Positions 7,319 to 63,921 of a stretch of 64,000 bases of DNA are shown one piece after another; positions within the stretch are counted from its first letter, which is position 1, and each line of letters starts with the position of its first letter. Origin of the DNA: an uncultured virus (IMG/VR IMGVR_UViG_2721755796_000006). Lineage: Duplodnaviria; Heunggongvirae; Uroviricota; Caudoviricetes. The translations under genes were made by a program, and so were the position numbers. Location: IMG/VR virus record IMGVR_UViG_2721755796_000006, one strand, 5' to 3'. A model generated the notes under the pieces. That model was given only the letters and a program-made list of their open reading frames with translations. It was not told where the DNA came from and did not search any database.

Positions 7319-8887
7319 ATGGATTCATCATTACAGGAAGGTTTTCAGCCCATGCCGGACACAGAACAGGAGTACAAAAAGCAGATCAAAGAACTGGAAC
7401 AGCAGGTCCGGCTCCTGAAGGAGCAGGTTGATTTCCTTACCCGTAAACTTTATGGGACAAAATCAGAAAAGACGTCTGCCTTCGAAATAGCGGGGCAGAT
7501 GTCTCTTTTTAATGAAATAGAATCCTGTGCCGCTCCGGATGTACACGAGCCGGACCTGGTCGAAGTCGAAAAACATCTACGTAAAAGGAAGTACGCAGGC
7601 CAGCGGGAAAAACTGATCAAAGACCTTCCCCGCAGCAAAGTGCTCCATACGATCGATGAAAGTGAACAGATCTGTGAAAGGTGCGGGGGTGCCATGGTAA
7701 AAGTCGGTGAGGAGTTTGTCCGTACCGAGGTACAGTTCATTCCTGCACGCCTCAAAGTGATTGACCACTACCGGGAAACCTATGAATGCAGGACATGCCG
7801 CAAAAACAGAACACCTTATATGGAGAAGTCCCCGGTGCCCTGTCCCCCGGTCATGCATTCCCTTGCGTCTGCTTCCACAATCGCATGGCTCATCCATCAG
7901 AAGTTTGAACTGGGCATTCCATTATACCGCCAGGAAAAGGAATGGGAGGCCCTGGGCCTTTCTTTAAGCAGGGCGACGATGTCGAACTGGCTTCTGACAG
8001 TCTACCGGGACTGGCTTTCCCATGTGGTCGGTCATCTCAGAGAGGAACTTCTGAAACAGAAGTATCTGCATATCGATGAGACTCACGTACAGGTGCTGAA
8101 GGAATCAGGGAGGAAGAACACTTCGGATTCTTATATGTGGGTATATTGCAGCATCAGGGACTGTAAACGGCCAGTCAGGTATTTTGAGTACCAGCCGGGG
8201 AGAGGTGGAAAATATCCGGAAGCATTTTTAAAGGGTTATACCGGATATATCCATACGGATGCTTATTCCGGGTACAATGGAGTCAGGGATGTCACAAGAT
8301 GCCTGTGCTACACCCATCTGCGCCGCGCTTTTGTAGACGCGCTGCCAAAAGACATCCATGACCCGAAAGCTTCAAAACCCGCGGAAGCGGTCGTTCGTCT
8401 GAATAAGCTGTTTGAGATAGAAAAGGAACTGGACGGCCTTCCCCCGGAACAGAAGAAAAAAGAACGGATGAACCGCGAGAGACCACTTCTCGAGGCTTTC
8501 TGGTCGTGGGCGGAGATAAACTCTGCCGGAGAACTTCCAAAGTCGAAGCTCCATACAGCTTTCCATTATGCCCTGAACAACCGCCAGGAATTCTTCAATT
8601 ATCTGGAAGACGGGCACTGTTCGATCAGCAACTCACTTGCTGAAAACTGTATCCGTCCATTCGTGATCGGCCGGAAAAACTGGCTGTTTACCGGAAGTCC
8701 GAAGGGTGCTGCCGCAAGTGCAGGGATCTACACTCTGGTCGAGACAGCGAAAGCCAATGGACTGGATGCAATGAAATATATCAAATATATCCTGTCAGAT
8801 ATGCCAGGGAGTACATTTCTTGAAAATCCGGAATATCTGGATGACTATCTGCCATGGGAGCCCATGGTGCAGGAACGTTGCCGATGA
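7319..8887 (+). CDS. tnpC: IS66 transposase TnpC
   Basis: LYGTKSEK, Zn ribbon CERCG..CRTC, HIDETHV, HTDAYSGY, SNSLAENCIRP; true start may be slightly downstream. Confidence 0.95.
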   Translation: MDSSLQEGFQPMPDTEQEYKKQIKELEQQVRLLKEQVDFLTRKLYGTKSEKTSAFEIAGQMSLFNEIESCAAPDVHEPDLVEVEKHLRKRKYAGQREKLIKDLPRSKVLHTIDESEQICERCGGAMVKVGEEFVRTEVQFIPARLKVIDHYRETYECRTCRKNRTPYMEKSPVPCPPVMHSLASASTIAWLIHQKFELGIPLYRQEKEWEALGLSLSRATMSNWLLTVYRDWLSHVVGHLREELLKQKYLHIDETHVQVLKESGRKNTSDSYMWVYCSIRDCKRPVRYFEYQPGRGGKYPEAFLKGYTGYIHTDAYSGYNGVRDVTRCLCYTHLRRAFVDALPKDIHDPKASKPAEAVVRLNKLFEIEKELDGLPPEQKKKERMNRERPLLEAFWSWAEINSAGELPKSKLHTAFHYALNNRQEFFNYLEDGHCSISNSLAENCIRPFVIGRKNWLFTGSPKGAAASAGIYTLVETAKANGLDAMKYIKYILSDMPGSTFLENPEYLDDYLPWEPMVQERCR

Positions 8888-12877: not shown

Positions 12878-14545
12878 ATGGATACACAGGAACTTTTACA
12901 GCAATACGACGGAGATATGTACCTCCGTATTTCCCATGAGGACGGCGACAAAGCCGAAAGTGACAGTATCGCAAACCAGCGGGATTTGATTACAGCCTTT
13001 TTGGAAAAACACCCTGAAATCACCCTTCGCAAAGTATGGGTTGATGATGGGTATACCGGAGTCAATTTCGACCGGCCTGATTTTATCCGTATGATGGAAT
13101 CGGTCAGAAATAAGAAAACCAACTGCATCATCGTCAAGGACTTTTCAAGGCTTGGCAGAAACTTTATCGAAACGGGAAAATATATCGAAAAAATCTTTCC
13201 GTTCATGGGTGTGCGGTTTATTTCTGTCAATGATGATTATGACAGCGCAAAGCCGCGAACCGCATCGGACAATCTGATAGTGCCGGTAAAAAATCTGATG
13301 AATGATGCCTACTGCCGGGATATTTCCATCAAGATACGGAGCCATCAGGACATTAAGCGCAGGAAAGGGCAGTTTATCGCACCCTTCGCTATGTTTGGCT
13401 ACCTGAAAGACCCGGAGGATAAGCACCATCTCATTATTGATGAGTTTGCGGCAGGCGTGGTGCAGGATATGTTCCATCTGATACTGGAGGGATATTCCTC
13501 GGAAGCGATTGCCGACCGCCTGAACGAACAAGGCATCCCCTCTCCCCTTGAATATAAGAGGCTGCTGGGGAGCACCTATAAGACACCCTTCCGGCGTAAT
13601 CCCAAAGCGGTGTGGACAGCAACTGCCGTTCTCCGCATTTTGAAAAACCCCGTCTATATCGGAACGCTGGAACAGGGGAAACGCAGCAGTCCCAATTACA
13701 AAGTAAAAAAGCAGTTTGCCGTGCCGGAGGAGCAGTGGGCGGTAAAGGAAAACACCCACGAACCGGCGGTCAGCCGTGATACCTTTGAGAATGTGGCAAA
13801 GATCCTGCGCACAGACACCCGGACGGCACCCGGTGAGGAAACGGTTTTCCCGTTGGGAGGGCTTCTCTACTGTGCTGACTGCGGGCGGAGCATGGTGCGA
13901 AAGAACAACTCCACCGCAGATAAGCCCTATTATTACTATATCTGTTCAGGCAGCAAGGAAAAGAGCGGCTGTAAAAGCCACAGCATCCGTGACATTCTGC
14001 TGGAACAGGCCGTTTTTGCGGTTGTGCGGGAGCATATCCGTTCTGTCCTTGATGTGGAACAGATACTTACCGCAATTACAAAGCTGCCCTACACCAGCCG
14101 TCAGATAAAAAAGATGGATGAACGGCTCAAAGCAAAGCGGGACGAGGTGGAAAAATACCAGCTCTACCGCATGAAACTCCACGAGGACTACATGGATGGC
14201 ATCATTTCCCGTGAGGATTATATCGCTTTTGGCAAACGGTATGACCTGAAAGCACAGAACGCCGGAGAAGCGATCCTTTCTCTGGAACAGGAAATAGACC
14301 GGCTTGTGGAGGGGAAATCCGAGGAACAGAAATGGATTGCCTATTTCAAACAGTATCAGGATATTGAGGAACTGAACCGTAAGCTGGCGGTGGAACTGAT
14401 TGACCGCATCTTAGTCTTTGAAAATCAGCGGATAAACATCAAGTTCAAATTTCAGTTTGAGTATGACAGTGCGATGTCACTTATACAGAGCGTGGAGCGT
14501 ATCAATCCGGCTCTGACCGTATCATCCGGAAGGGAGGCGGTGTGA
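12878..14545 (+). CDS. Large serine recombinase 1
   Basis: YLRIS catalytic motif, DDGYTG, KDFSRLGRN, recombinase domain, Zn ribbon CADCG. Confidence 0.95.
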   Translation: MDTQELLQQYDGDMYLRISHEDGDKAESDSIANQRDLITAFLEKHPEITLRKVWVDDGYTGVNFDRPDFIRMMESVRNKKTNCIIVKDFSRLGRNFIETGKYIEKIFPFMGVRFISVNDDYDSAKPRTASDNLIVPVKNLMNDAYCRDISIKIRSHQDIKRRKGQFIAPFAMFGYLKDPEDKHHLIIDEFAAGVVQDMFHLILEGYSSEAIADRLNEQGIPSPLEYKRLLGSTYKTPFRRNPKAVWTATAVLRILKNPVYIGTLEQGKRSSPNYKVKKQFAVPEEQWAVKENTHEPAVSRDTFENVAKILRTDTRTAPGEETVFPLGGLLYCADCGRSMVRKNNSTADKPYYYYICSGSKEKSGCKSHSIRDILLEQAVFAVVREHIRSVLDVEQILTAITKLPYTSRQIKKMDERLKAKRDEVEKYQLYRMKLHEDYMDGIISREDYIAFGKRYDLKAQNAGEAILSLEQEIDRLVEGKSEEQKWIAYFKQYQDIEELNRKLAVELIDRILVFENQRINIKFKFQFEYDSAMSLIQSVERINPALTVSSGREAV

Positions 14546-14546
14546 C

Positions 14547-16253
14547 ATGGCAAGGAAAAGCAGATTCAGGGTGCCCGTGCAGGAAAAACCGAAACTGCGG
14601 GTGTATAGCACAGGGGCGTATGTGCGTCTTTCCGTGCTGGACGGCCATCAGTGCGACAGTGATTCCATTGAAAATCAGGAAGCCCTTGTCCGGGCATATG
14701 TCGAAAGTGACCCCAGCCTTTCCCTCTTCTCCGTCTATTCAGACAATGGGGAAACAGGGGTGGATTTTGAACGGGATGATTTTGAACGCTTGCTTGATGA
14801 TATACGGGCGGGCAAGGTGGATTGCGTCATCGTCAAAGACCTTTCACGTTTTGGACGGAATTACATAGAGGCCGGTGAGTATTTAGAGAAGATATTTCCC
14901 TTTATGGGAGTCCGTTTCATAGCGGTGAATGACGGTTATGACAGCATTGACCCAGCGGCCTCGGACAGCCTTTCCATGCACTTAAAAAATCTGGTGAACG
15001 ATGTATATGCCCGTGACATCTCACAGAAAATCTGCCCCGTGCTGCAAGAGAAGCAGGAACGGGGGGAGTTTATCGGCAACTGGGCGGCATATGGCTACCT
15101 GAAATCGGCGGAGGATAAGCACCGCCTTGTGGTGGACGAAGAAACAGCCCCGGTTGTCCGCGACATCTTTCAGTGGCGCTTAATCGGTATGGACTATCAG
15201 GAAATCGCAAAAAGGCTGACCGAGCTGGGGATTCCATCCCCCAGCCGTTACCGTTTTGAAAAAGGGATGGTGAAGTCCAAACGTTTTGCGGCTTCCGTCT
15301 GGACGGGACAGGTCATTAAAAACATGGTCCGAAGTGAGGTTTACTTAGGCCATGTGGTGCAGGGTAAGACCCGCAAGGCGCTTTGGAAAGGACAGAAACG
15401 CACTACCCAGCCGAGAGAAAAGTGGACGGTCGTAAAAAATACCCACGAAGCGATTATTGACCGGCAGACCTTTGACGAGGTACAGAGGATGGTGGAACAG
15501 GATAAGCAGATGTTTGATGACAGACAGGGGGCTTTCCCGGAAATCATTAATCCTGAAAACATCTTAAAAGGGCTTGTTTATTGTGGGGACTGTGGGAGAA
15601 AACTTGTACGTCAGAGAAGTGTCCACGAAAGAAAAGTTAAGAACCCCGGAATCCATGTGCGGTATTTTTTTTACTGCCATACCCATGCGGAGGACTCCAG
15701 CCGTTGTGTCGGTATCAGGGTGCCGGAGGATACCCTTTTAGAAACTGTTTCCCAAGTGATTCGGTCCCATTTTGCAATGGCGCTGGATATGGACAGGCTG
15801 ATAAAAAGTGCGGGCAGAAAGGCGCTCAATCTTTCTAAAAAGCAGGAAATCCTCCGCCGTATCATGCAGGCAGAGGAACAGCTTGACCGGATTGCCCATC
15901 TGCGGGAAACTCTCTATGATGATTATTTAGACCACCTGATGAATGAGCACGACTATCTCTACGCCAGAAACCGTTATATAGAGCAGGAAGAAGCACAGAG
16001 AGCGCTGCTGGAAGAACTGGAAGCACAGAATGCGGCTGTCAGGGAACCGGGAACCGGTAAACCGGCGTGGCTCAGGGCGCTGCTCGCTGTCCATGAGGCA
16101 CCGGAACTGACACGGGGGATGGCGCTGGAACTGATTGATCGGATTACCGTATACAGCAGCTCCAACATCGCCGTGCGGCTCCGATTTGAGGACGAATATG
16201 AGTGCATGAAGGAATGGCTGTTCCCTCCGATGGGGGTGGAAGCCAGTGAATAA
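14547..16253 (+). CDS. Large serine recombinase 2
   Basis: YVRLS, DNGETG, KDLSRFGRN, CGDCG. Confidence 0.95.
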   Translation: MARKSRFRVPVQEKPKLRVYSTGAYVRLSVLDGHQCDSDSIENQEALVRAYVESDPSLSLFSVYSDNGETGVDFERDDFERLLDDIRAGKVDCVIVKDLSRFGRNYIEAGEYLEKIFPFMGVRFIAVNDGYDSIDPAASDSLSMHLKNLVNDVYARDISQKICPVLQEKQERGEFIGNWAAYGYLKSAEDKHRLVVDEETAPVVRDIFQWRLIGMDYQEIAKRLTELGIPSPSRYRFEKGMVKSKRFAASVWTGQVIKNMVRSEVYLGHVVQGKTRKALWKGQKRTTQPREKWTVVKNTHEAIIDRQTFDEVQRMVEQDKQMFDDRQGAFPEIINPENILKGLVYCGDCGRKLVRQRSVHERKVKNPGIHVRYFFYCHTHAEDSSRCVGIRVPEDTLLETVSQVIRSHFAMALDMDRLIKSAGRKALNLSKKQEILRRIMQAEEQLDRIAHLRETLYDDYLDHLMNEHDYLYARNRYIEQEEAQRALLEELEAQNAAVREPGTGKPAWLRALLAVHEAPELTRGMALELIDRITVYSSSNIAVRLRFEDEYECMKEWLFPPMGVEASE

Positions 16254-17838
16254 AACCTTTGTTATCGTTTTGTATATCCGTATTTCTGTGGAGGACGAGG
16301 ACAGCCGTGAAGGAATCAGGGATGAGAGCAACAGCGTCTCCAACCAGCGTGACCTGCTACGGCGCTTTATCGGGCAGTCCCCGGAGTTTGAGGGCCGCAA
16401 GGTCATGGAACTGTGTGATGACGGATTTTCCGGCACCAGCATGGAACGGCCCAATATGCAGAAACTTTTGCAGAAAGCCAAGGCAAAGGAAATCGACTGT
16501 ATCATCGTAAAGGATTTTTCGCGGTTTGGCAGGGATTATATCACGGTCAGCGACTATGTGGATCAGATATTCCCGTTTCTCGGCATCCGCTTTATTTCGG
16601 TCAACGATGGCTATGACAGCGCCAAAATGAACGGCAAGACCAGCGGCGTGGATATTGCTTTCCGCAACGTGATTTACAGCTATTACAGCAAGGACTTGTC
16701 CCTGAAAGTAAAAAGCGGCTTACAGACAAAGGCGCGCAAAGGTGATTTTTTAAGCTCCTTTGCCCCCATAGGCTACCGCAAAGACGAAAAGGACAAAAAC
16801 CGGCTTGTCGCTGATAAGGACAGTGCAGGGATTGTCCGGCGCATTTTTGAACTGGCTGGCGCAGGGATGACCGTGGTGGAAATCACCCGTCTGTTCAATG
16901 CAGAGAAAGTGCCTACCCCCAGCGCCATCAAGAACAGGCAGGGCTATTATCATAAATGGTGGATTGGGGTGAAAGGTGCCGACCTCTGGAATGAGAGCGC
17001 AATCACAAATATTCTGCGGGATGAACGGTATTTAGGTAAGACCATCTACGGCAAGCGATACCGCCCACAGATCGGGAACAGAAAAACCCTTAAAAACAGC
17101 AGGTCGGATTGGATCATTGCAGAGGAACGGCATGAACCGCTCGTCAGTGCAGATGAGTTTCAGAAAGCGCAGGAACATTTGGCGGAATTTGTGGAACGGG
17201 ACTTAGGGCAGGCAGGGATATACCTTTTTACGGATAAACTGCGGTGCGGTCATTGCGGTTATGCCCTTATCAGACGGTCACGTTCCAATCCACAATATTT
17301 TTGCAGGACAAGATACAGGACTACCGGTTTTGGATGTATGGAGGGCAGCGTCAGGGAAAGTGAAATTGCAGACGTTGTGCTGGCTGCCATCCAAGCTTAT
17401 ATAAAAACCCTGATGGACGAGAAGGAACTGCTGCTAAAGGCCGGGAACACGGATACGCTTGCCAGCCTGCAAAAACAGGTCACTTCCTATCAGAGCGCCT
17501 GTGCCAAGATTGATGAGCAGAAAGCTGAACTGTACGATGCGATGGCAGAGGAAAAAATCAGCCGGGAGAAGTACCGGCAGGAACGGGATAAGCTGTCACG
17601 GGGGCAGGCAGAGATGGCACAGCGGGCTGAAGCGGCAGAAGCAGAACTCACAGAACTGCGGAGCAAGCTGGCCGCCGCCAAGCAGGGGGAACCAAAGCTC
17701 ATACGCTATTTACAGGCAGATGCCCTTACACGGCAGATGGTAGTTGACTTTGTGGACTGCGTTTATGTTTACAACGACAAATCCATTCATATCGAGTGGA
17801 GCTTTTCAGAAAAAGGAGAGAAAAATGAATCAGCATAA
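16246..17838 (+). CDS. Large serine recombinase 3
   Basis: YIRIS, DDGFSG, KDFSRFGRD, CGHCG. Confidence 0.95.
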   Translation: MNKTFVIVLYIRISVEDEDSREGIRDESNSVSNQRDLLRRFIGQSPEFEGRKVMELCDDGFSGTSMERPNMQKLLQKAKAKEIDCIIVKDFSRFGRDYITVSDYVDQIFPFLGIRFISVNDGYDSAKMNGKTSGVDIAFRNVIYSYYSKDLSLKVKSGLQTKARKGDFLSSFAPIGYRKDEKDKNRLVADKDSAGIVRRIFELAGAGMTVVEITRLFNAEKVPTPSAIKNRQGYYHKWWIGVKGADLWNESAITNILRDERYLGKTIYGKRYRPQIGNRKTLKNSRSDWIIAEERHEPLVSADEFQKAQEHLAEFVERDLGQAGIYLFTDKLRCGHCGYALIRRSRSNPQYFCRTRYRTTGFGCMEGSVRESEIADVVLAAIQAYIKTLMDEKELLLKAGNTDTLASLQKQVTSYQSACAKIDEQKAELYDAMAEEKISREKYRQERDKLSRGQAEMAQRAEAAEAELTELRSKLAAAKQGEPKLIRYLQADALTRQMVVDFVDCVYVYNDKSIHIEWSFSEKGEKNESA

Positions 17839-51743: not shown

Positions 51744-52046
51744 ATGGTAGCACACGAAGTATTCGCAATGATATTTGACGAAACGGTACAGAATGTGGTG
51801 GTAGGGCATTATGAAGAGGTCAACCGAGTAGCACGGTGCGTATATGGTGACGATGCCTTTGCGGTGGATTGCCTGCAATATCCCTGTGAGATAGGAGATA
51901 AGTACATAAACGGCGTATTTTACAAGGCCGATGGGATAACACCCATTGAATATATCCCTACCCAGGAGCAGCAGGTGGCTCAGCTCCGGCGAGAAAATGC
52001 GGAGCTTACACTTGCCCTGGCAGACATGATAGGAGGTGCAATGTAA
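51744..52046 (+). CDS. Fibre-associated small protein
   Basis: VQNVVV...IGDKYINGVF; position. Confidence 0.65.
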   Translation: MVAHEVFAMIFDETVQNVVVGHYEEVNRVARCVYGDDAFAVDCLQYPCEIGDKYINGVFYKADGITPIEYIPTQEQQVAQLRRENAELTLALADMIGGAM

Positions 52047-52192
52047 TGTTATCCAATATACAGCGCAACATCATTATCCGGGCCCTGCAGATTCGGATGA
52101 ATCAGGGGGAGGAACCGGCAGGCATCCTGGATGGTTACAAGAACCTGACAGAAGAGGAAAAGGCAGAGCTGTTGGAAGCCTTAGAAGAATAG
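52046..52192 (+). CDS. Small phage protein (48 aa)
   Basis: ATG overlapping previous TAA after GGAGGT. Confidence 0.6.
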   Translation: MLSNIQRNIIIRALQIRMNQGEEPAGILDGYKNLTEEEKAELLEALEE

Positions 52193-52206
52193 GAAAGGTG
52201 AGGTTA

Positions 52207-52635
52207 ATGAAGATGAAGAAAGATATTGTATGTGCCATTATGGGAATGGCAGCGGCGGCAGGAGTAAAGCTTTTTGGGGGCTGGACCCCGACATTGAGTA
52301 TCGTGCTCATACTTATGGGACTGGACCTGATGGCAGGGTTCTTGGTGGCTGTGGTGTTTAAAAAGTCACCAAAATCGGAGAGCGGTGCTGCTAGCTCAAA
52401 CGCGATGCTTAAAGGGCTGTGCAAGAAATTTATGATGGTGTGCCTTCTGGCGGTAGCCCATCAGCTTGATGTGGCCCTGGGAGTGGATTACATTATGCTG
52501 GCAGCTACATATGGATTTATCGCAAATGAGTCGTTGTCGATTGTGGAGAATGCCGGACTCATGGGTATTGTGAAATCCGATGTGATAATCAATGCCATTG
52601 AAGTGTTAAAGGGCAAATCGCAGAAAACAGAGTAA
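52207..52635 (+). CDS. Holin (phage holin 4 / toxin-secretion type)
   Basis: LFGGW, TM helices, ANESLSIVENAG. Confidence 0.9.
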   Translation: MKMKKDIVCAIMGMAAAAGVKLFGGWTPTLSIVLILMGLDLMAGFLVAVVFKKSPKSESGAASSNAMLKGLCKKFMMVCLLAVAHQLDVALGVDYIMLAATYGFIANESLSIVENAGLMGIVKSDVIINAIEVLKGKSQKTE

Positions 52636-52719: not shown

Positions 52720-53493
52720 ATGAGTAAAACAGCAGCAGGATTAATTGAGCATTGCAAGGACAAGCTTGGCACACCCTACGTCTACGGCGCCAAGGGTGAG
52801 GTCCTTACCCAAGCCATACTGGATAGGTTGGCCCGGGAGAACCCAGGCACATACACATCTACTTACAAGGCCAAGGCCGCCAAGTACATAGGCCAGCGCT
52901 GCACGGACTGTTCCGGCCTCATCAGCTGGTACACCGGGCGCATCCGCGGCAGTTACAACTACCACGACACAGCCGTGGAGCGGATAGGCGTTGACCATCT
53001 GGACGAGTCCATGGTCGGTTGGGCGCTCTGGAAGCCGGGACACATCGGGGTATACATCGGGGATGGATGGTGCATCGAGGCCAAGGGCATCAACTACGGG
53101 ACCATCAAGTCCAGAGTGGCGGTCACACCCTGGCAGAAAGCCCTTAAGCTCTGTGATATTGATTATGCCCCGGTTCAGGTGACATACACCCAGGGCTTCC
53201 GGCCGGCCGCAGACGGGCAGCGCTGGTGGTATCAGTTTACAGATGGTAGCTTTGCGGCCAACGGCTGGTACTGGCTCCGGGAGGCCACGGACGGCACATA
53301 TGGCTGGTACCTGTTTGACAGCGGGGGCTACATGCTGACCGGCTACCAGGTGGACCCTGCTGGCGAAGCCTTCCTGCTCTGCCCGGTCAAGGGCTCTGAC
53401 GAGGGCAAATGCATGATTACGGATGCCAGGGGAGTGCTCCGGATTGCGGAGGAGTATGACATGGTAAATCGACGGTACGTGTTTAATTGGTAG
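52720..53493 (+). CDS. Endolysin: NlpC/P60-like catalytic domain plus cell-wall-binding repeats
   Basis: PYVYGA, DCSGLI, GHIGVYIG; WYLFDSGGYMLTG. Confidence 0.88.
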   Translation: MSKTAAGLIEHCKDKLGTPYVYGAKGEVLTQAILDRLARENPGTYTSTYKAKAAKYIGQRCTDCSGLISWYTGRIRGSYNYHDTAVERIGVDHLDESMVGWALWKPGHIGVYIGDGWCIEAKGINYGTIKSRVAVTPWQKALKLCDIDYAPVQVTYTQGFRPAADGQRWWYQFTDGSFAANGWYWLREATDGTYGWYLFDSGGYMLTGYQVDPAGEAFLLCPVKGSDEGKCMITDARGVLRIAEEYDMVNRRYVFNW

Positions 53494-53529: not shown

Positions 53530-53871
53530 TCAATCATAATAATGGCGTACAACATAATGAGCCAGCGCATCAATAAAGGCGCCGTTCCGCGGCTTTTGTG
53601 CCAACTCAAAGCTGAAAACCTGGTTTAAAAGATTCCGGTCGCCATGGAGCCAGATAGTATTAATGATGGTGCGTATATTACGTTCTACACATCCTACAGA
53701 TGTTTGGTAGCGGGCGGCAATTTCTACATATAGCCCTTTTGATATATAAGAAAGCAGGTCCGGTTCATGGACTGAGCGGATTACACCATAAATAGTATAG
53801 CGGAATCCTACGTAGGAATTATTGACACCAAGCCGTCGAAGCAGGTTACTGGTTTCTCTTTCGTATTTCAT
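53530..53871 (-). CDS. Spo0A C-terminal DNA-binding-domain protein, no receiver domain
   Basis: LLRRLGV...GFRY, KGLYVEIA, VERNIR, KPRNGAFI. Confidence 0.9.
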   Translation of the reverse strand: MKYERETSNLLRRLGVNNSYVGFRYTIYGVIRSVHEPDLLSYISKGLYVEIAARYQTSVGCVERNIRTIINTIWLHGDRNLLNQVFSFELAQKPRNGAFIDALAHYVVRHYYD

Positions 53872-54158
53872 ACTGATTCCTCCTTGTTTTTTGTTACTAA
53901 TTTAACGATATATGCAAGGAGGGGCATTATCAAGTGAAGATTGAACGACAAAAAGCAACGAAAAGTGTCGTAAAATGCGAATAAACGGACCATTTATGGT
54001 ATTATTTGCCAGGACAACCCCTGCATTGAAAGGAGTACAATGGCCTTGGAAGGAGGCGCATAAAGATGGATGGAAGGCGAGGAGGAATTGGAAATCTTCC
54101 TTTTTTATTCAGATTATGCTATGATGCATATATAAAATATAAAAAGGGGGAAACATAG

Positions 54159-54410
54159 ATGAATGGAGTAAATAATAAACCAGATGCTATTTATGCCAAC
54201 TTTGTAGCCATCAGTAATAGCGCATATGAAATGAGGATTGAGTTCTTGGTAGAATCTCCAGAACAAGATAATAGCCTAAAAGAGGTAGCCGATGTGAGAA
54301 TCAGCCCTCAGTTAGCAAAGAAGATGTGTGAAATCCTAAAGGAAAGCATTGCAAGGTATGAGGAAAAAATTGGTGCGATACCGGCAATGAATGATGAAAG
54401 CGGTGAGTAG
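54159..54410 (+). CDS. DUF3467-like small protein
   Basis: IYANFVAIS.S.YEMRIEF...VRISPQLAK...YEEKIGAI. Confidence 0.7.
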   Translation: MNGVNNKPDAIYANFVAISNSAYEMRIEFLVESPEQDNSLKEVADVRISPQLAKKMCEILKESIARYEEKIGAIPAMNDESGE

Positions 54411-54412
54411 AG

Positions 54413-54928
54413 ATGACCATTTACACAGAACCTATTTGTTCTTGGCAAATTTTTAGTCCGCATATATTAGATGTTAGGAACAGGTATAGGAGAATAAGCC
54501 ATAGTCATCCCACAATAGAAACCAGACTAACCAGTCAAAAGGGCATATGGGATTATGATTCCGCAATGTGCTTAGAGGGGACATATATGGATATAGAAAA
54601 ACAGGAGAATATCAAGAAGCTGCACGAAATAGCAAAACTCCCATACAATTGGAATGAAAATTGCGCAGATTCATTCAGCCCACAGGTGATTTCGGAGTGT
54701 CTGGATATTGTGGACATGGTGCCGAGACAACCTGAAATCTTTCCAACTGCTGCGGAATCTATACAGATGGAATATGAAAAGGAAGACGGCGAGTATCTGG
54801 AGTTCAATATTTTTGAGAACCACATAGAGGTATTTGGGATTGGGCCTGACGGAACCGAAAAAGAAGCCCAGATGCCAATCGCGGACAAAGGAAAAATACA
54901 GCAGATGGTGATGGAATTTTATGGATGA
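54413..54928 (+). CDS. Hypothetical protein (L..NW...A...P.IFPT...IQMEY), candidate antitoxin
   Basis: Coupled to both neighbours; acidic C-terminal domain; possible alternative start at MDIEKQ. Confidence 0.7.
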   Translation: MTIYTEPICSWQIFSPHILDVRNRYRRISHSHPTIETRLTSQKGIWDYDSAMCLEGTYMDIEKQENIKKLHEIAKLPYNWNENCADSFSPQVISECLDIVDMVPRQPEIFPTAAESIQMEYEKEDGEYLEFNIFENHIEVFGIGPDGTEKEAQMPIADKGKIQQMVMEFYG

Positions 54929-55331
54929 AACGAAGACTGTGTACAGAAGAATGAGAAATCTACCGGATTACATTCGGAAAGATGGAAGCATATCATCGGC
55001 ATTATTCAGCGACAGAAACGGCGTATCTGTTGATATTGATGCAGGAAGAAGTCTTGAGGATATCATAAAGGATGAGGAACGTTTACATCAATCCTATCAT
55101 CCTGGTATGTCACAGGACGAAATGATAAGAACCAAGCGGGCATTGAAAGCAATTATTGCGGTTGAAAGAGAAGAATGTGAAAGTAAAAGTATTGTGATAC
55201 AGCCTGAACCCATCAGGGAAGAAAATGAATACCATGCAATCCTGAGACGTGACGATGGTACATTGCAATTGACCCACGGACAGTGTAAGCATTTATCTAA
55301 CAAGTGTAGATACGTAAAGAAATATTTTTAG
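54921..55331 (+). CDS. Hypothetical protein with ART/RES-like motif pattern
   Basis: VYRR, ISSALF, GVSVD, YHAIL. Confidence 0.6.
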   Translation: MDETKTVYRRMRNLPDYIRKDGSISSALFSDRNGVSVDIDAGRSLEDIIKDEERLHQSYHPGMSQDEMIRTKRALKAIIAVEREECESKSIVIQPEPIREENEYHAILRRDDGTLQLTHGQCKHLSNKCRYVKKYF

Positions 55332-55361
55332 CAATTGAGTGATATTCAAGAAATAAGTGAA

Positions 55362-55397
55362 AGGCGGGTACCGGATGCGACCGGACCCGCCTAAAAA
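55362..55397. terminator. Hairpin closing the three-gene moron
   Basis: AGGCGGGTACCGG / CCGGACCCGCCT. Confidence 0.6.
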
Positions 55398-55402
55398 TAT
55401 TT

Positions 55403-55579
55403 GGTAGGCAACGTCTACCATTTGCCTACCTTGCACAAGTTTTTCTATAATACGCCTGGTTACGCTATAGTATTTCTGGTTTTTCTATTTCTTGAAAATC
55501 CCTTATTTTAAAAGATAATAAGTTACGCTATAATATTGTGTAGCACACATGATTTTTTGACATCGACTTACCGGGAACT
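55403..55579 (+). other. Probable prophage right att region; core resembles the 3' end of Lachnospiraceae 6S RNA
   Basis: GGTAGGCAA/TTGCCTACC inverted repeat, GTTACGCTATA at 55459 and 55522, then ACACATGATTTTTTGACATCGACTTACCGGGAACT (55545-55579). Confidence 0.55.
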
Positions 55580-56520: not shown

Positions 56521-57537
56521 GTACAGCATTGCCAAAATAATAATGAATAGACGCTGCTTTTTTATTGTAGTCGGTGCATAATAATTCTATCACTAAAGAA
56601 TGGATGTGTTATTATGCGAAGGAAAACAATTGATACTATCCCGGTTTTATCTGATGCCATGAAAAACATATTATCTGCTTTTTCAAAAAGCCGCTCCCTT
56701 CCGTCAGGACTGGTCAAAAGAGCCAGCATTGTCCTGCTTGCGTCACAGGGGGAACTCAACCAGAATATTGCACCACAGGTCGGGCTTCATTATAATAATG
56801 CTGCCACCTGGCGCAGTCGGTTCCTCGCGGCGCTCCCAGCCTTGCGGAGGATTGAAATGGACGACCCGGAAAAGCTTGAAGATGAGATACGGGCAGTCCT
56901 GTCCGATAAAAAACGCCCCGGTGCCCCGTCTGTTTTTACGCCGGACCAGATCATGCGGATCATCGGCCTTGCCTGCGGCAGCCCAAATGATTTTGGGTAC
57001 GAAGTAAGCCAGTGGAGCCTCCCGCTGTTAGTGGCAGAAATTAAAAAGCAGGGGATCGCTGAACAGATTTCTGAGAAATCTGTCAGCCGTTTTTTAAAAA
57101 TGAGGTAGATTTACATCCCCACAGAATCCGTTACTGGCTTCATTCTCCGGAAAAGACGGAAGGCCCGAAATCTTTTGCGCGGAAAGTAAACGAAATCTGC
57201 GGCCTGTACCAGAGCGCCCAGGAACAAAGCCGGGAAGGTGCACACATTGTTTCCACGGATGAAATGACCGGGGTACAGGCGCTGGAACATAAATATCCTG
57301 ACAAGCTCCCATTACCCGGCCAGTGCGCCAAAATGGAGTTTGAGTATATCCGCCATGGCACGGCCAGCCTCATCGGGTTCTTTGATGTTGCAACGGGCCG
57401 TATGGAAATGCCGTATTTAAACTCCACACGCACAGAAGAGGATTTTGTGGAAGCCGTGAAAGCATTGGTAAGGACAGACCCGCAAGCCCCATGGACATTT
57501 ATATGCGATGGCCTAAACACCCATAAGTCGGAAGCTT
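56519..57537 (+). mobile_element. IS630-family element, 3' truncated
   Basis: Starts at TA; HTH ORF 56614-57108; slippery TTTTTTAAAAA; catalytic frame STDEMTG, EYIRHGT, CDGLNTHKS ends before the final acidic residue. Confidence 0.88.
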
Positions 57538-59693
57538 TAATAGAATCACTGTATATACTAAAGAAAATATATCAACTAGATATTCTGTACAAATTGCTTA
57601 TGAAAATGCAGAAATAAACTTATGGGGTGTAAAAAATAAAGTTAAAGTTGTGACGAATTGGAAAGTGTCTATTGACCCTAGATGTTTAAATTTGTTAAAT
57701 AAAATTCTATATAAAAGTACAAAAATTAGTTCTAATTATGGTGAGTATAACTCATTAATGAATTTCTTAACCAAGGCGGGTATGAACTTTTTGGATATCA
57801 TTCGATTGAGTGATGCAAATTATAACAAAGTACTAAATGATATTTTTGGAAAAACAAACACTTCAGAAATTAAAGAAATTTTAAATGAATTAAAACAAAA
57901 ATACTCAAAATCATCGAGTCAAAGTGGACAATATACAATACGATATATATTGCTCAATTTGAGGGAGGAGACAATAGAAGAAGTATTACCTGACTCTTAT
58001 AATCCAAAGACACTAAAAAATGGCCCATATATCTCAAGTAAATGTTATCCATTCGAAACAAAGCCATTCATTTCCAACATAGCAGGGGGAAAATCCAGTA
58101 AGGGTAGATTAACGGATATTCTTGAAATTGTTGATGATCCTGAAAAGTATAATGTTGTACGACCTTATTTAGAAATTGAGAGGTATATAAGGGAAACAAG
58201 AGAAGTGTATTTTAATATAGATTCTGTTGCAAGCCAAGAGGAAGTTGATAAATATAACGCAAGTTTGGATGATTGGGAAAAAGGTCAAGGATTTTCAATA
58301 AAAAGTGACAATAAATCACTTTTTATCGAGTCCTATGAAAAAACCACATTGTCCATAATAACCAAATTAATCTCTTTTTCTAAGTGCGAGAATAAAGGAC
58401 AGAAGACTGTAAATGAAAAACATATTAAAAAAAAAAGGGGGAGGGGGGTATCGATTTTGATGATAAGATAAAAGAGTTGGCTTTGAAAAATGCATTTGTA
58501 CATACTAATGTAATGCTTATTTATGGAGCAGCAGGGACAGGAAAGACTACACTGATGAATTATATATCAAATATGATGGGTGATTCTAAAAGTTGTTTCT
58601 TTCAAAAACACGTACAGCCTTAGAAAATTTAGAAAGAAATATAGATGATCCAGGAGCTAATAGTGATTTTAAAACAATTGATAGTTATGCAAAATCATGT
58701 ATAATTTTAGATTATGTTATTGTATTCATTGATGAGTGTAGCACTATAGATAATAGAACAATGGATATGTTTCTAAAAAAAGTAAATGAACAAACATTAC
58801 TTGTCTTGTCAGGAGATGTATATCAAATTGAATCAATTGATTATGGAAATTGGTTCTATTATGCGAAAGATATTGTCAAATCAAAAGGTTCTAATGTTGA
58901 ACTTTTTAGCACATGGAGAACTAACAAGCAAGAGTTAAGGAGTCTGTGGGAGGAAGTGAGAACTGTTAAATCGATAATTACAGAAAAGCTTTCCATGGAC
59001 GGTCCATTTTCTTCTGATATTGGAGAAGATATATTTGTACACGAAGATGGTGAGATTGTATTGTGCTTAAATTATGATGGGAAATTTGGGTTAAATAATA
59101 TGAATCTCTATTTTCGAAATGCGAATACATCTAGCAAAGCTTATTCGTGGAATGAATGGACATTTAAGGTTGGAGATCCGATTATTTTTGTGAATTCTAA
59201 TCGTTCATCATTACTTTACAATAATCTTACTGGAAGAATTGTTTCTATTTCAAAAAATGATAGTGCAATTTTATTTACGCTTGATGTTGATACAGTTTTA
59301 AATGAACAACAGTGTAGAAATGAGAGCTTTGAAGTATTGCAGGGAATGAAAACGAAGACAAGAATTCTGTTAGATGTAATTGTGTATAATGATGAAATGA
59401 AAGATGAAGACCGAATTAAGACAATTATTCCGTTTCAGATTGCATATGCAGTATCTATTCATAAAGCGCAGGGGTTAGAGTTTAATTCCGTAAAGATAGT
59501 AATTCCTTCAAATAATGCGGAAAAAATAACCCATGATATATTTTACACTGCAATTACTCGTGCTAAGGAAAAACTAAGAATCTATTGGAGTGCTGAAACA
59601 ATGCAAAGTATAGTGGAAAGGTTTGCCGAAGAGAAAAGAGAACAAAAATCGCTAATGTTGATTAAGAAAAAATTAGGTATAAATACTGATTAA
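57538..59693 (+). pseudogene. RecD-like SF1B helicase split by frameshifts
   Basis: Walker A GAAGTGKT (58525-58548) is in a different frame from ORFs 57650-58471 and 58593-59693 (IDECS, GDVYQI, SIHKAQGLEF, YTAITRA). Confidence 0.8.
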
Positions 59694-60029
59694 TAAGAAA
59701 TTAAAAGAGCAAAAGAAAATAGATAGTACGGCAAAAAAGTAGTAGAAAAGGTTTTAAATACAGACAATATTCTTTTTAGATGTCGCGACATACCTCGGGC
59801 AGCTCTTAGAAAGAGTCGTTGATGTCTGTGACCAAACAAAGCTATATTGCTTCACTGGAGAAGTATTTGCAAATATTACGTGAAAATGGATGGACCTCAA
59901 ACTGATGAATACTTTTTAAGACAGCTAGATGAGATACAATGGTGATTTTGAGAATAGGGTTTGCAAAGAGAGGATTGCGATTTAGATAATGTGATTATGT
60001 ATTTAAATATTTATTGAGGAAAAGAAAAT

Positions 60030-61073
60030 ATGGCGAACAAGAAAAAAGAGATTACAATACACAGCTCAGCCGCAGAGTATCTAACATATGTGGCATCTAC
60101 AGGTAATAGCTCAGATAGTCTTGAGATGCGCTATGAAGACGAGAACATCTGGCTGACACAGAAAATGATGGCTGCCTTATATGATGTTTCGGTTTCGGCA
60201 ATCAATCAGCACCTTAAAAGAATATTTGAAGATAATGAGCTGGTAGAAGAATCAGTTATTAAGAAATACTTAATAACTGCCTCGGATGGTAAATCCTACA
60301 GTACGAAACATTATAACTTACAGGCAATCATTGCCGTTGGCTTTAAAGTGAACAACGACCGTGCCGTAAGATTCCGTAAATGGGCTGGTCAGATTGTCAA
60401 GGATTATACAATTCAAGGCTGGACGATGGACAAAGAGCGCCTGAAAAAAGGGCATATGTTCACCGATGAATATTTTGAACGTCAGTTGGAAAATATTCGT
60501 GAGATACGCCTATCTGAGCGCAAGTTTTATCAAAAGGTTACAGATCTCTATGCCACAGCGTTTGATTACGACAAAGATGCCAAGACTACCCGGCAGTTTT
60601 TCAAAATGGTACAGAATAAGATGCATTGGGCCGTACACCGGCATACAGCAGCAGAATTGATTGTAGAGCGTGCAAATGCTGAAAAAGAGCATATGGGCCT
60701 GACAACATGGGAATCAGCGCCAGATGGGAAAATTGTCAAAGCAGATGTTACTATTGCTAAGTACTACCTGAGCGAAAAGGAAATGTCCTATTTGGAAAGA
60801 ATCGTTTCACTGTATCTTGACTATGCGGAGTTACAGGCGGAACGAAGAATACCGATGAGTATGGAGGACTGGGCAAAGCGCCTTGACGGATTCCTGGAGT
60901 TTAATGGAAACGAATTGCTGATGGGACCGGGAAAAGTCAGTGCGGAACAGGCGAAGCTTTATGCAGAAACTGAGTTTGAAAAATATCGTATTGTGCAGGA
61001 TCGATTATTTATGTCGGATTATGATAAGTATTTGTTGGAATTAGAACATCAAGCAAATCAAAATGGCGCGTAA
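60030..61073 (+). CDS. RhuM-family protein
   Basis: WLTQKMMAALY, YNLQAIIAVG, IREIRLSERKFYQK, VQNKMHWA. Confidence 0.92.
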   Translation: MANKKKEITIHSSAAEYLTYVASTGNSSDSLEMRYEDENIWLTQKMMAALYDVSVSAINQHLKRIFEDNELVEESVIKKYLITASDGKSYSTKHYNLQAIIAVGFKVNNDRAVRFRKWAGQIVKDYTIQGWTMDKERLKKGHMFTDEYFERQLENIREIRLSERKFYQKVTDLYATAFDYDKDAKTTRQFFKMVQNKMHWAVHRHTAAELIVERANAEKEHMGLTTWESAPDGKIVKADVTIAKYYLSEKEMSYLERIVSLYLDYAELQAERRIPMSMEDWAKRLDGFLEFNGNELLMGPGKVSAEQAKLYAETEFEKYRIVQDRLFMSDYDKYLLELEHQANQNGA

Positions 61074-61446
61074 AGACAATTATATAGTTTCCGCCCAGGA
61101 TCAATTCTGCCCTGGCAACATCATTATTATCCACTCAACAAATGTGGAGACCATTGTCGAATTATGTCAACATTTCTGAATTAAGAAGATTCAGGTAGTA
61201 GATAGAAAGAAACAGCACTAAGTTTTCACAAGTATTAAATTCTATGGTATTATTTAAAGGAATATGTGGACAGGGCATTCAAAAGAAACTTGATGTCTTC
61301 TCAGTGAGATTGAACGATCTATCCTGTCAAAGTGATTCTGAGTTGCTTAATTTAATAAAATAGGAATATTTTTCGAATATGTAAACAATTTCTTTGTTTT
61401 TTATGAAAACTAGAGTATTATTGTAGCAAATAAAGGAGTTTCCAGT

Positions 61447-62125
61447 ATGGATAAACATAGATTTTCACAATTATATTGGAAAAACTATATTTCTGTAGAG
61501 AAGGAATTTATGCAGACACTAAGTTATATAGATTTTGATAAAGAAAACTATAAGGTTTTTTCTTCTGCGTATATTAAACTCTTATTGCAGATAGGAAGTG
61601 AAATTGACATAGTAGCAAAATCATTTTGTAGACATTATAATAACCTTTTAAATGTGAAAATTATTGATGAATATAGAAAAGAAATTTTAAAATATGTTCC
61701 CGATTTTGCCAGTGCAGAAGTGAAAATATTACAAGGCGATGGAATACAACCAATAAAGCCATAGGGAGCATGGAATATAACGGCAGCCACATCTCAACCA
61801 TCCAATCCAATTTGGTGGAAGGTATATAATATGGTAAAACATCATAGAACAGAGTCCGGGAGTATAGAGGGAGAGTAAGGAGTATTATAAATTCGCCAAC
61901 TTGGAATATACATTATTTGCATTAGCAGGTTTATATCAAATATTAATTTATTATTTTTTTGAGTTAGCAAAAACAGAAAGAATAAAAGTACCGCTTCCAG
62001 GTTCACATTTGTTCGAACTATCTGGAGGAAAGTGGGATACTATAATTTTTTATCAGGATTTCGCTTTTTATGTGGATGATTCAGATGGCCATTTATATAG
62101 TGAAACGGGGGAGTTTATCTATTAG
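61447..62125 (+). pseudogene. Disrupted hypothetical gene with WW..YN..KH.R motif
   Basis: In-frame TAG at 61762 followed by NPIWWKVYNMVKHHR, second break near 61876. Confidence 0.6.
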
Positions 62126-62666
62126 ATAGCTGTTTACTCGGATGCTTAGTATCGTATTATGTAGAAATATTTGAATATTTGATACATGTAGCATTTGAAT
62201 TAAAGAATGAAATTAAAACTAACCGATTGTGTGGAATAACAGGGGAAAAACACATAGACGATGAGAAGAGATTATATTAAATACTATAAACTTATCATTT
62301 GAAAGAGGTTTTTAACAGTGGAGATTTATATAGAGAGGCAATTGTTCGAAGATTTCGAGTAGCTCAAAGGGAAGGAACCCTGTCAGTAAATCGGGAGATT
62401 GAGATACAAAATACTTTTGCATGTGAAAGAGGATAAAGCATAAATTATAATAAGCCATCTGTTTTCTGTAATGTTGTGGTTTGAAAACATGATGATGTTT
62501 CAGCAAAAGTGGTATTTTGTTTCTTAGGCACCCGAATCACAACCTCAACAAATGGTGAAGTTTATGTGGAATTATGTCGAAAAAAGACATACCTTCTGGT
62601 CCGATGGAAAAAGAAGAAAAATTCGTAGTATCATAAGAAGATTTCTGGTATAATACTACTAGGAAG

Positions 62667-62849
62667 GTGGAGGTGGAAATCTTGAAGAAAGATGCGGTAA
62701 AGTTAGCAAAACAGGTTGCTGGAACCATGGCGATTGAAGGAATGAAGTTGAAACAGTCAGAGTATAATCAGCTTTTGCGTTGTGCTAATGGTCAACAATC
62801 AACTTCGGCAACGATAAAGAAGGCTATTAGGCAATATACGGTCAAATAG
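62667..62849 (+). CDS. VbhA-like antitoxin
   Basis: GTMAIEGM motif directly upstream of fic. Confidence 0.75.
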   Translation: MEVEILKKDAVKLAKQVAGTMAIEGMKLKQSEYNQLLRCANGQQSTSATIKKAIRQYTVK

Positions 62850-62857
62850 GTGAAAAG

Positions 62858-63322
62858 ATGGAACAATATTATTATGAGTACGAACAGGATAGCATTTATT
62901 GTTATCCTGATTCTTTTATCCTGAAAAATAAATTGAACATTAGAGAACCGGAAACTTTGGAGGAAGCAGAACGCAATATTACGGCACTCAGAATTTTGGA
63001 GTTGAAACAAAATCCCCCCAAAGGCAAGCTGACTTTTAAATATTTTCAAAAGTTGCATAAACAAATCTTTGGAGACATTTATGAATGGGCTGGAAAAGTA
63101 CGGAATGTGAATATTGCAAAGGGAAATATGTTTTGTGACTGCAGATTTATTGAAGACATGATGGAGGAAGTATTTAGTGAACTGGAAAAGGAGAACTATC
63201 TGCAGTCGTGTGATACTGAAGAAATGGCTGACAGATTAGCATACTATTTATCAGAGATAAATGCGTTACATCCGTTTCGAGATGGAAATGTAACACAGAG
63301 ACACCAGCAGAAAGCGGCGTAA
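62858..63322 (+). pseudogene. Fic-domain toxin truncated inside its catalytic motif
   Basis: LKNKLNI, HKQIFGDIYEWAG, HPFRDGN then VTQRHQQKAA* instead of GR. Confidence 0.85.
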
Positions 63323-63620
63323 CAGCGGCAAACTGCTTTGTACATAAAATTTAATAGCATATATGCCAAAGGACATTTCATCTTTTATTTAGGTGGATGT
63401 CCTTTTTTGTACTTACTTTTAAGAGTATGGCATACCACCTTGTACATCATACGGATGCATGACTTCCAATATGCCAGAAACCTTGCAACCATAGGCTTTT
63501 TCGAGCGTTCCACTCGTTACAGAGTTTTTGTCCATATAACGTATTTCTTGCTAATTCTGTATCGTATCGTCCTATTAGCAAATCCAATTATACATGCAAG
63601 ATACAAATACAGTCTTTTGT

Positions 63621-63646
63621 GACTTATTGTATGTTGACTTATTGTA
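63621..63646 (+). promoter_or_regulatory. C-box-like tandem operator
   Basis: GACTTATTGTA twice at 15-bp period upstream of an XRE gene. Confidence 0.55.
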
Positions 63647-63681
63647 TTCACTCGGTTATACTAAAGAAGGGTGAATTTAGC

Positions 63682-63921
63682 GTGGATGTAATTAAGGTAT
63701 TTTCAAAAAATGTAAAAGCATATCGTATGCAATTAGGTCTTTCTCAAGAACATTTCGCAGAAAAAGCAGGATTGCATAGGACATATATTAGTGCGATAGA
63801 ATGTGGAAAACGAAGTATCTCTTTAGACAATATACAAAAAATTGCTGACGCGTTGCAGATAGACACGTATTTACTTTTTATTGATCAAGAAAATTTCAAT
63901 CAAAAGGGAGGTGAGGTTTAG
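63682..63921 (+). CDS. XRE HTH protein, R-M controller (C protein)-like
   Basis: GLSQEHFAEKAGLHRTYISAIECGKRSISLDNI. Confidence 0.85.
   Translation: MDVIKVFSKNVKAYRMQLGLSQEHFAEKAGLHRTYISAIECGKRSISLDNIQKIADALQIDTYLLFIDQENFNQKGGEV

Follow-up and report, generated by a model that had tools for sequence, protein, structure and literature searches.

The 64,000-nucleotide stretch of DNA analysed here (IMG/VR record IMGVR_UViG_2721755796_000006, hereafter the window) holds a tailed prophage from the mouse gut with terminase, portal, capsid, sheath and baseplate genes. At the end of this prophage lies a cassette of 1.3 kb in which three open reading frames (ORFs), here called g1, g2 and g3, follow each other in the same orientation on the plus strand, with a gap of 2 nt between g1 and g2 and an overlap of 8 nt between g2 and g3 (Table 1). 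An earlier note, made from the sequence alone, had described these ORFs as three tightly coupled genes encoding a DUF3467-like protein, an acidic protein with a leader of about 58 residues and a protein reminiscent of ADP-ribosyltransferase (ART)-fold or RES toxins, and had proposed a new tripartite toxin-antitoxin defence system. The ORF coordinates agree with the described coupling, and both the DUF3467 assignment of the first protein and the division of the second into a leader and an acidic domain were borne out. In the following we describe the proteins, their relatives in other genomes and contigs, and the extent to which the cassette may be regarded as a toxin-antitoxin-type module.

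The product of g3 itself has no usable match in Pfam, NCBIfam, PHROGs or PADLOC and only six close homologues. A profile made from these homologues retrieved at least 349 clusters at 50% identity (E ≤ 0.001), nearly all of them consisting of proteins of 120-140 aa. Pfam searches across 126 members of this family revealed no recurring family (0 consistent matches). The RES toxin family (PF08808) has no match in g3 at E ≤ 1 and none in the 126 members at E ≤ 0.01, and no Pfam match to the Tpt1/KptA family (PF01885) was obtained for g3. In the ESM Atlas both g3 and the conserved domain of g2 fall in unnamed clusters, the sole named candidate lead for g3 being DUF6098 (feature score 0.93, unconfirmed). 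The family was found in two of 300 sampled genomes of the class, and tblastn searches with g3 gave no match in INPHARED (50,697 phage records) or among the PLSDB plasmids.

Based on the alignment of this family, the AlphaFold2 (AF2) model of g3 was obtained with a predicted local distance difference test (pLDDT) of 96 and a predicted template modelling score (pTM) of 0.88. When this model was compared with 48,161 PDB chains using VIA-align, 43 of the 50 best rows were ART-fold enzymes or toxins, as read from the entry titles. The top row was the C-terminal lobe of KptA (Z 7.0, root-mean-square deviation (rmsd) 2.7 Å over 86 aa), and a second structural look placed nine Tpt1/KptA entries on top (Z 6.9-7.4, rmsd 2.5-3.0 Å, 86-91 aa), in each case with the NAD lobe only. 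AvrPphF, RES toxins, Tse2, DarT and pertussis, cholera-like, diphtheria-like and Rhs ART toxins are also included in the VIA-align list. It is the one-sided make-up of this list that carries the assignment, and on the basis of its model g3 is predicted to be an ART-type fold protein, whose shape appears to be closest to the Tpt1/KptA clade lacking the catalytic Glu. The 136 aa of g3 align to residues 87-181 of the Tpt1/KptA chain only, the N-terminal lobe being missing; in Tpt1 this lobe carries most of the catalytic residues.

The 126 family members share the signature E5-x-L-[YF]-R9, [ST]25-S-A-x-F-K-D, G34-x-S36-V-D-R, R43, P97 and N102-x-[YF]-H105, and the YR...SS.LF...SV...H pattern that had been picked out in the single protein proved to be this conserved family signature. 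In the window's g3 it is represented by Y8, R9, S25, S26, A27, F29, G34, S36, V37, D38, R43, P97, N102, Y104 and H105. R9 and H105 are present in all 126 members, followed by S36 (125), F29 (119), N102 (116) and S26 (113). In the model R9 belongs to strand 6-12 and S36 to strand 35-39, and strand 105-109 begins with H105; the ART motifs I-III sit on strands likewise. The invariant R9 is a candidate for the motif I residue (Arg/His on the first strand). Of the ART/RES likeness originally proposed, the ART-type fold was thus recovered at the level of the model, whereas by sequence g3 is neither a RES protein nor a canonical ART.

The second protein consists of the N-terminal extension and the acidic C-terminal domain (g2C). 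A total of 64 homologues were found for the conserved domain. The extensions are poorly conserved and have a high content of Ser, Thr and Asn. With the ATG inside the gene at 54587, which is preceded by a good ribosome-binding site (RBS), a short g2 form of 113 aa would be possible; in the homologue P0009 (46% identity over 100% of g2) the extension is kept and the internal Met is missing. No Panacea domain was detected in a Pfam search of the window's g2, and a PDB sequence search with g2 gave nothing under E 0.1. In other proteins g2C is joined to different partners. It is fused to SocA/Panacea antitoxin domains in P0066, P0070 and L057/L058, where a g3-family gene then follows, and elsewhere to tetratricopeptide (TPR) repeats. 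In P0047 and its kin (224 aa) it is followed by a C-terminal extension matching the N-terminus of PADLOC PDC-M02B (E 3.3e-21), which again points to g2C as a module that is shuffled between proteins. Two further fusions (L086:974-1915 and L087:3986-4723) combine g2C with a cytidylyltransferase-like domain (PF01467, E 3e-12) on contigs that end before any g3 is visible. By eye, the motif of this domain resembles that of nicotinamide or nicotinic acid mononucleotide (NMN/NaMN) adenylyltransferases, and the fusion may connect g2C with NAD metabolism. There are also stand-alone g2C genes that lack g3; the nearest ESM Atlas clusters of stand-alone g2C-like proteins (125-130 aa) are 70-75% viral, and the only tblastn match of g2C among the phage and plasmid records was a weak one to an uncultured phage whose record is not annotated.

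In most of the relatives g2 and g3 are linked. With g3 as the seed 14 loci were found, and in 10 of them a g2-like ORF runs into the beginning of g3. With g2 as the seed, 75 metagenome loci with 76 g2C ORFs were collected, five of which leave no room on the contig for a further gene. In 59 of the 71 evaluable cases a g3-family ORF lies directly downstream of g2C (48 intact, 8 partial, 3 cut by the contig end), and it is absent in 12. Clustering of g2C at 70% identity gave 37 clusters, in 29 of which g3 is found next to it. The co-occurrence that the earlier note had set as a test holds almost always for g2 and g3; the full DUF3467-g2-g3 trio recurs across divergent lineages with DUF3467 as the first gene in 7 of the 37 g2C clusters, the first gene being otherwise exchangeable.

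The two linked genes differ in the way they are lost. In the eight entries with a partial g3, this gene is shortened or broken up although the g2C next to it is intact. In L016, g3 is lost after 25 nt. In L039 (4458-5297) and L040 (2219-4408), about 20 N-terminal residues of g3 remain, followed by an IS200/IS605-like TnpA and a TnpB-like ORF (identified by eye), while the DUF3467 and g2 genes upstream of the interrupted g3 are kept. Decay of g3 while g2 is kept is the pattern of a self-toxic gene. The only locus with a deleted g2 and a full-length g3 is L007, in which most of the first gene and g2 are deleted in frame; here, as a single case, g3 carries the exchange S36L at a position occupied by Ser in 125 of 126 members. 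Together, the decay pattern and S36L may be taken as indirect signs of g3 toxicity.

Most g2-g3 relatives are found in chromosomal, non-phage surroundings, and others in IMG/VR viral contigs (L013, L014). The distribution is sporadic and mobile: few of the sampled genomes of the class have the g3 family, the G+C content of the cassette is lower than that of the prophage body (40.1% vs 48.9%), and the 98% identical copy in the metagenome contig L015 has different flanks. In the Schaedlerella-like genomes L009, L010 and L011, a cassette of a 210-aa gene, g2 and g3 is located directly downstream of the EF-Tu gene (approximately at 3367-6393 of the locus), with only a g3 remnant left at this site in L011.

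The gene preceding g2 is modular. DUF3467 was detected by Pfam in the window, L015, L017, L030, L070 and L089, and by BLAST clustering only in L037/L046 and L084. In other loci its place is taken by DUF6941 (matched at E ≤ 0.0053 by all 8 proteins tested, 3 of which exceed the cut-off), by a 210-aa family in mouse-gut Lachnospiraceae, or by two further families of 206-223 aa in L041, L072, L076-L082 and kin, and the remaining loci have nothing recurrent in this position. No similarity among the five first-gene families was detected by hhalign with the shallow profiles available, and none of them is present in PADLOC v2. One metagenome contig (L076) carries two three-gene cassettes in tandem (3127-4805 and 5075-6786), each with a 223-aa first gene, a g2-like and a g3-like gene. 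The presence of a first gene goes with the N-terminal tail of g2. Among 70 entries (17 others with less than 700 nt upstream were dropped), a g2 extension of at least 30 aa was found 48 times with a recurrent first gene vs 9 times without, and short g2 forms 2 times with vs 11 times without. Counted by cluster the table reads 17/6/1/5 (Fisher p 0.018), the clusters not being independent of each other. Two-gene forms are also found, one in a phage (L014) and four with a short g2 (L019, L020, L052, L069).

In the window, g1 belongs to DUF3467 (PF11950, E 1.2e-10, 41.7 bits vs a gathering cut-off of 25, profile positions 26-90 of 92) and matches PHROG 7919 (E 6.8e-9). The protein is acidic (pI 4.6) and its gene is preceded by a strong RBS (AAGGGGGA, 54144-54151). 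Its AF2 model (pLDDT 77.5, from 11 sequences) is a beta-beta-beta-alpha unit of three strands and one long helix. The best rows of the structural search are COMM, PC4 and Pur-alpha domains (Z ≤ 4.8), and PC4, Sub1, Pur-alpha, Whirly and MRP1/2 are also matched at Z 2.7-4.5. No SecB entry is among the 50 structural rows listed, which, with a best Z of 4.8 and all values below 5, does not exclude a SecB likeness; at the sequence level g1 has no Pfam match to SecB at E ≤ 1. A PDB sequence search with g1 gave nothing under E 0.1. DUF3467 is scarce in the class (3 of 300 sampled genomes, 1 over the Pfam cut-off). In one genome of the same class (L091, 1498-2749) a DUF3467 gene (E 3.3e-9) heads another tight three-gene cassette, whose partners of 199 aa and 119 aa have no Pfam or PADLOC match.

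The closest relative among described systems is PDC-M32. The PDC ('phage defence candidate') systems of PADLOC comprise 145 candidates, and their prediction was based on genes that lie inside BREX, DISARM or type I restriction-modification loci (bioRxiv 10.1101/2024.01.29.577857). The C-domain of g2 matches positions 262-368 of the 375 positions of the PDC-M32A model (E 3.2e-6), and 50 of the 126 g3-family members match PDC-M32B over the full length (E ≤ 0.001, best E 1.2e-9), including the 44-45% identical g3 relatives L002 and L014 (2.3e-6 and 2.5e-4). In contrast to PDC-M32A, the window's g2 is without the first approximately 260 of 375 positions and has the 58-aa tail and a separate DUF3467 gene instead. 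From these profile matches the g2-g3 pair is best described as a remote, rearranged relative of the PADLOC candidate PDC-M32. The earlier note had asked for co-occurrence in defence islands, and the pair is related to a candidate that stems from known defence loci. Since the g2C-g3 pair is a remote form of PDC-M32, the cassette, which the note had proposed as a candidate new system, is not wholly new. In the literature, PDC-M32 is merely listed and no function is given. In the main texts of the literature searched, no paper on the effector fold, the modular first gene or a role of DUF3467 or DUF6941 was found, DUF3467 being mentioned in a single, unrelated paper and DUF6941 in none; the family itself is possibly listed already in the PDC, Panacea or NetFlax studies. 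What is new here is the effector fold with its signature, the modularity of the first gene and its tie to the tail of the putative antitoxin, and a possible first role for DUF3467 and DUF6941.

Taken together, the sequence comparisons and models suggest, with a probability that we put at about one half, that the cassette is a prophage-carried toxin-antitoxin-type module and most likely an abortive-infection or defence moron, in which g3 would be the effector, g2 the neutraliser and g1 an accessory protein. As a small ART-fold enzyme, g3 would use NAD+ to modify a target and be harmful when free; the phosphate of RNA or DNA is a possible target, as in Tpt1/KptA. The acidic C-domain of g2 would bind and restrain g3, and its N-terminal tail could serve as a handle or docking site for the product of the first gene. 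g1 would then be an exchangeable accessory that stabilises or senses via the g2 tail and so sets the condition for g3 release. It would thereby act like a chaperone in the manner of toxin-antitoxin-chaperone (TAC) systems without being SecB.

Several observations weigh against this interpretation. All structural Z values of g3 are below 8, a range in which, according to the tool, matches can stem from no more than a common arrangement. Foldseek gave no match of g3 to the PDB at E ≤ 0.001, and a PDB search with the g3 profile gave nothing under E 0.5. The hhalign probability of the g3 family was 0.09% against a RES profile (10 domains) and 0.24% against a Tpt1 profile (6 sequences); with values below 1% for both, g3 would belong to an ART-fold family that is not recognisable by sequence. 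The family does not keep the catalytic Glu of motif III (Q/E-x-E at the start of the fifth strand): E103 occurs in only 29 of 126 members, and N102 and H105 are kept instead. Catalysis of ADP-ribosyl transfer can therefore not be taken for granted. With a pI of 6.97 g3 is not basic, and the window's protein deviates from its family in K5 (E in 108/126), S30 (K in 111/126) and I39 (R in 102/126) and has no match to PDC-M32B at E ≤ 1. The confidence of the g1 model is moderate, and its best structural matches are nucleic-acid-binding or oligomerising beta-beta-beta-alpha units rather than chaperones. Furthermore, the 12 g2C ORFs without an adjoining g3 have to be accounted for, and many of the loci are close kin, so that the counts overstate the independent support.

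A more specific form of the module can be put forward tentatively. The g3 family would comprise Glu-less mini-ARTs of Tpt1/KptA-like shape that, once released, ADP-ribosylate the phosphate ends or the backbone of RNA or DNA. g2C would hold g3, and the disordered tail of g2 would be guarded by interchangeable sensors or adaptors other than SecB (DUF3467, DUF6941 and three further families). The cassette would then represent a second, independently evolved TAC logic, DUF3467 and DUF6941 would receive their first function, and the stand-alone g2C proteins of phages would be decoy antitoxins. We regard this extended scheme as speculative.

A possible explanation of limited weight is that g2 and g3 form a plain two-gene toxin-antitoxin pair, with the first gene encoding, instead of a partner of the antitoxin, a nucleic-acid-binding or regulatory protein, for example of the PC4/Pur-alpha-like type, that would regulate the operon or target phage DNA or RNA. 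The existence of two-gene forms would be explained in this way, as would the presence of PC4, Sub1, Pur-alpha, Whirly and MRP1/2 among the best structural matches of g1 and the DUF3467 gene at the head of the unrelated cassette in L091. A free-standing regulator would, however, not predict that the first gene goes with the g2 tail. The 2-nt gap between g1 and g2 also speaks for a closer connection, at least five sequence-unrelated first-gene families in the same place are better explained by interchangeable adaptors than by one DNA-binding regulator, and the structural matches of g1 all have Z values below 5.

ART-fold proteins also serve phages as weapons, AcrIF11 and the T4 proteins Alt, ModA and ModB being precedents. 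Accordingly, g3 could modify a defence or transcription component of the host or of a rival phage, with g2 and g1 as chaperone or timing inhibitor. The position of the cassette at the prophage end, the relatives in the viral contigs L013 and L014 and the largely viral ESM Atlas clusters of stand-alone g2C-like proteins are in line with such a function. We nevertheless consider it unlikely, as most relatives are chromosomal and non-phage, for example those of L009 and L010, which directly follow EF-Tu, members of the family match a candidate system that stems from defence loci, g3 decays while g2 is kept as expected for a self-toxic gene, and the 50,697 phage records contain no tblastn match to g3.

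We are also doubtful, and rather strongly so, that g3 is a harmless NAD or ADP-ribose enzyme of the Tpt1/KptA kind, for example one that repairs RNA or modifies its ends, or else a sensor that binds NAD(ADPr), with g2 as its regulator and no toxin-antitoxin logic. The nearest structures are indeed the NAD lobes of Tpt1/KptA, g3 has no catalytic Glu, and the g2C fusions in L086/L087 carry a domain of the nicotinamide mononucleotide adenylyltransferase (NMNAT) type. However, g3 lacks the entire N-terminal lobe of Tpt1, its profile is hardly related to that of Tpt1 (hhalign 0.24%), and a conflict system is in keeping with the acidic partner encoded by an overlapping gene, with the sporadic distribution and with the way the genes decay. 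A reversed polarity, with g2 as the harmful protein and g3 as an enzymatic antitoxin modifying it in a type VII-like manner, is very improbable: enzymatic antitoxins are known and an ART fold would suit protein modification, but g2C often stands alone without g3 (in 12 of the 71 evaluable cases, with many further examples in viral clusters), g3 decays while g2 stays intact, and g2C is fused to Panacea antitoxin domains.

If g3 is the effector of a toxin-antitoxin-type module, as we favour, its relation to known ART-fold systems can be specified. With Tpt1/KptA, its best structural match, it shares an ART-type fold without the catalytic Glu, and it differs in the missing N-terminal lobe, in the absence of a sequence relation and in its conserved residues (R, S, N and H). 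Tpt1 is not known to be paired with an inhibitor gene. Like the ART-fold type II toxins of the RES-Xre, ParST, MbcTA and DarTG systems, g3 is a small ART-fold protein beside a putative cognate neutraliser, and structural Z values of 5.5 (VPA0770), 5.0 (Xre-RES), 5.0 (DarT), 4.2 (ParT) and 3.1 (MbcT) were obtained. Its partner is neither an Xre/helix-turn-helix (HTH) protein nor a macrodomain, and g3 has no RES profile match. Similarity to the Panacea (SocA/DUF4065) systems of the PanAT type is given by those g2 relatives that are Panacea-g2C fusions followed by a g3-family gene. Accessory third genes have been noted at Panacea loci (PMC8832971).

The arrangement is reminiscent of CmdTAC and the TAC systems in general (as defined in bioRxiv 10.1101/2024.02.24.581848). 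These are phage-related systems of three genes, whose products are an effector with an ART fold, its neutraliser and a third protein that is tied to an extension of the neutraliser, as the first gene is tied to the presence of the g2 tail in the present cassette. CmdT, however, is similar to exotoxin A and contains the triad H-Y-[E/D/Q] (PMC11618068), whereas g3 has no such triad, carries R..S..N.YH (R9, S36, N102, H105) and resembles Tpt1. Moreover, the TAC chaperone is SecB-like and g1 is a DUF3467 protein, the gene order of the cassette is reversed, and the extension is located at the N-terminus of g2.

The surroundings of the cassette are summarised in Table 1. The earlier note had placed the cassette between lysis genes and an att site. 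Holin and endolysin genes do lie upstream, but they are separated from the cassette by a gene on the minus strand, which the note had not mentioned and which encodes the C-terminal DNA-binding domain of Spo0A on its own, and no att repeat was found in a repeat search within each region only. Instead, three different right-hand limits are indicated: the copy in L015 ends at 55432, the contigs from RNA libraries diverge past 55571 (the window sequence is left after this position in three RNA runs), and an IMG/VR provirus record with 97% word identity and a completeness rating of 100% has its right end at window position 56540. The Spo0A_C-like gene is part of the block shared with L015 and is spanned by RNA-library contigs; judged by its domain, it could be a phage-borne mimic of a sporulation regulator. 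The hairpin just 5' of the cassette may insulate it from transcription arriving from upstream. At the proposed extended -10 element TGnTATGAT, the sequence TGcTATGAT is indeed present, but a consensus scan called no promoter there because the -35 region is poor. The predicted closing hairpin was found to be stable (minimum free energy -25.6 kcal/mol for 55335-55410, z -4.0, with none of 200 shuffles folding equally well), it has no T-run, and the terminator scan did not call it as a plus-strand terminator.

Table 1. Positions of the cassette and of other features in the window
Feature	Position	Strand	Remarks
IS66-family transposase gene	1-1620	-
IS66-family transposase gene	7319-8887	+
Three tandem large serine recombinase genes	12878-17838	+	Resolvase + Recombinase + Zn_ribbon_recom; presumed left prophage end
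Holin gene	52036-52635		Upstream of cassette; Phage_holin_4_1, E 8.3e-26
NlpC/P60-like endolysin gene	52720-53493		Upstream of cassette; Pfam E 4.4e-4, under Pfam cut-off
Block shared with L015	53420-55432		98% identical, other flanks; end of endolysin gene, Spo0A_C-like gene, g1-g3, hairpin
Stand-alone Spo0A C-terminal DNA-binding domain gene	53530-53871	-	Pfam Spo0A_C, E 1.5e-28; between endolysin gene and cassette
RNA-library contig X15	53909-55571
Terminator-like hairpin	54079-54102	+	8 pairs, then TTTTATT; just 5' of cassette
RNA-library contigs X18	54084-54544 and 54515-55571
RNA-library contig X19	54089-55465
Extended -10-like element TGcTATGAT	54117-54125	+	Candidate promoter, weak -35
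g1	54159-54410	+	83 aa, DUF3467
RNA-library contig X16	54216-55392
g2	54413-54928	+	171 aa, leader and acidic C-domain
g2 N-terminal extension	54413-54586	+	Residues 1-58, near-neutral, poorly conserved
g2 C-domain (g2C)	54587-54928	+	Residues 59-171, pI 4.27, ~110 aa conserved, NWN..FS..QPEIFPTA..SIQMEYEK..YLE
g3	54921-55331	+	136 aa, predicted ART-fold protein
G+C-rich hairpin closing the cassette	55362-55392	+	No T-run
IS630-type transposase	56614-57617	+	Split into HTH_32 and DDE_3 ORFs
Genes right of the prophage	58593-63921	+	UvrD/AAA_30-type helicase, RhuM-family protein (E 1.1e-104), Fic/DOC protein, HTH_3 protein

Four RNA libraries (X15, X16, X18, X19), which come from three studies of the mouse gut, yielded contigs that cover all three cassette genes, a hint that the cassette region is transcribed; such contigs reveal no strand, ends or level, and DNA is possibly present in such libraries. 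Contig starts at 54084 and 54089 in two of the studies lie near TGcTATGAT and are a weak hint only. The word depth of the cassette contigs exceeds that of tail-gene contigs in X15 (358.6 vs 3.5-13), X16 (335.5 vs 7.8-11.8), X19 (81.6 vs 2.2-2.9) and X18 (approximately 56 vs 11.3). This excess was not counted as lysogenic expression, because depths of this kind cannot rank genes and DNA may contribute. The region of the IS630-type transposase, which is delimited by loose ends at 56517/56518 and 57535, has very high word depths of hundreds to thousands in each of the four RNA libraries. The genes at 58593-63921, to the right of the prophage, together look like a mobile or defence-type island, judging from their domains.

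Overall, if the proposed module exists, our analysis would provide the first mechanistic hypothesis for the PADLOC candidate PDC-M32. It would add to the ART-fold proteins an unrecognised family of at least 349 clusters with an R-S-N/H signature and without the catalytic Glu, and would give DUF3467 and DUF6941 a first functional context as swappable third components. The toxin-antitoxin-chaperone design would then have arisen with partners other than SecB, and phages may answer it with free copies of the neutralising domain.

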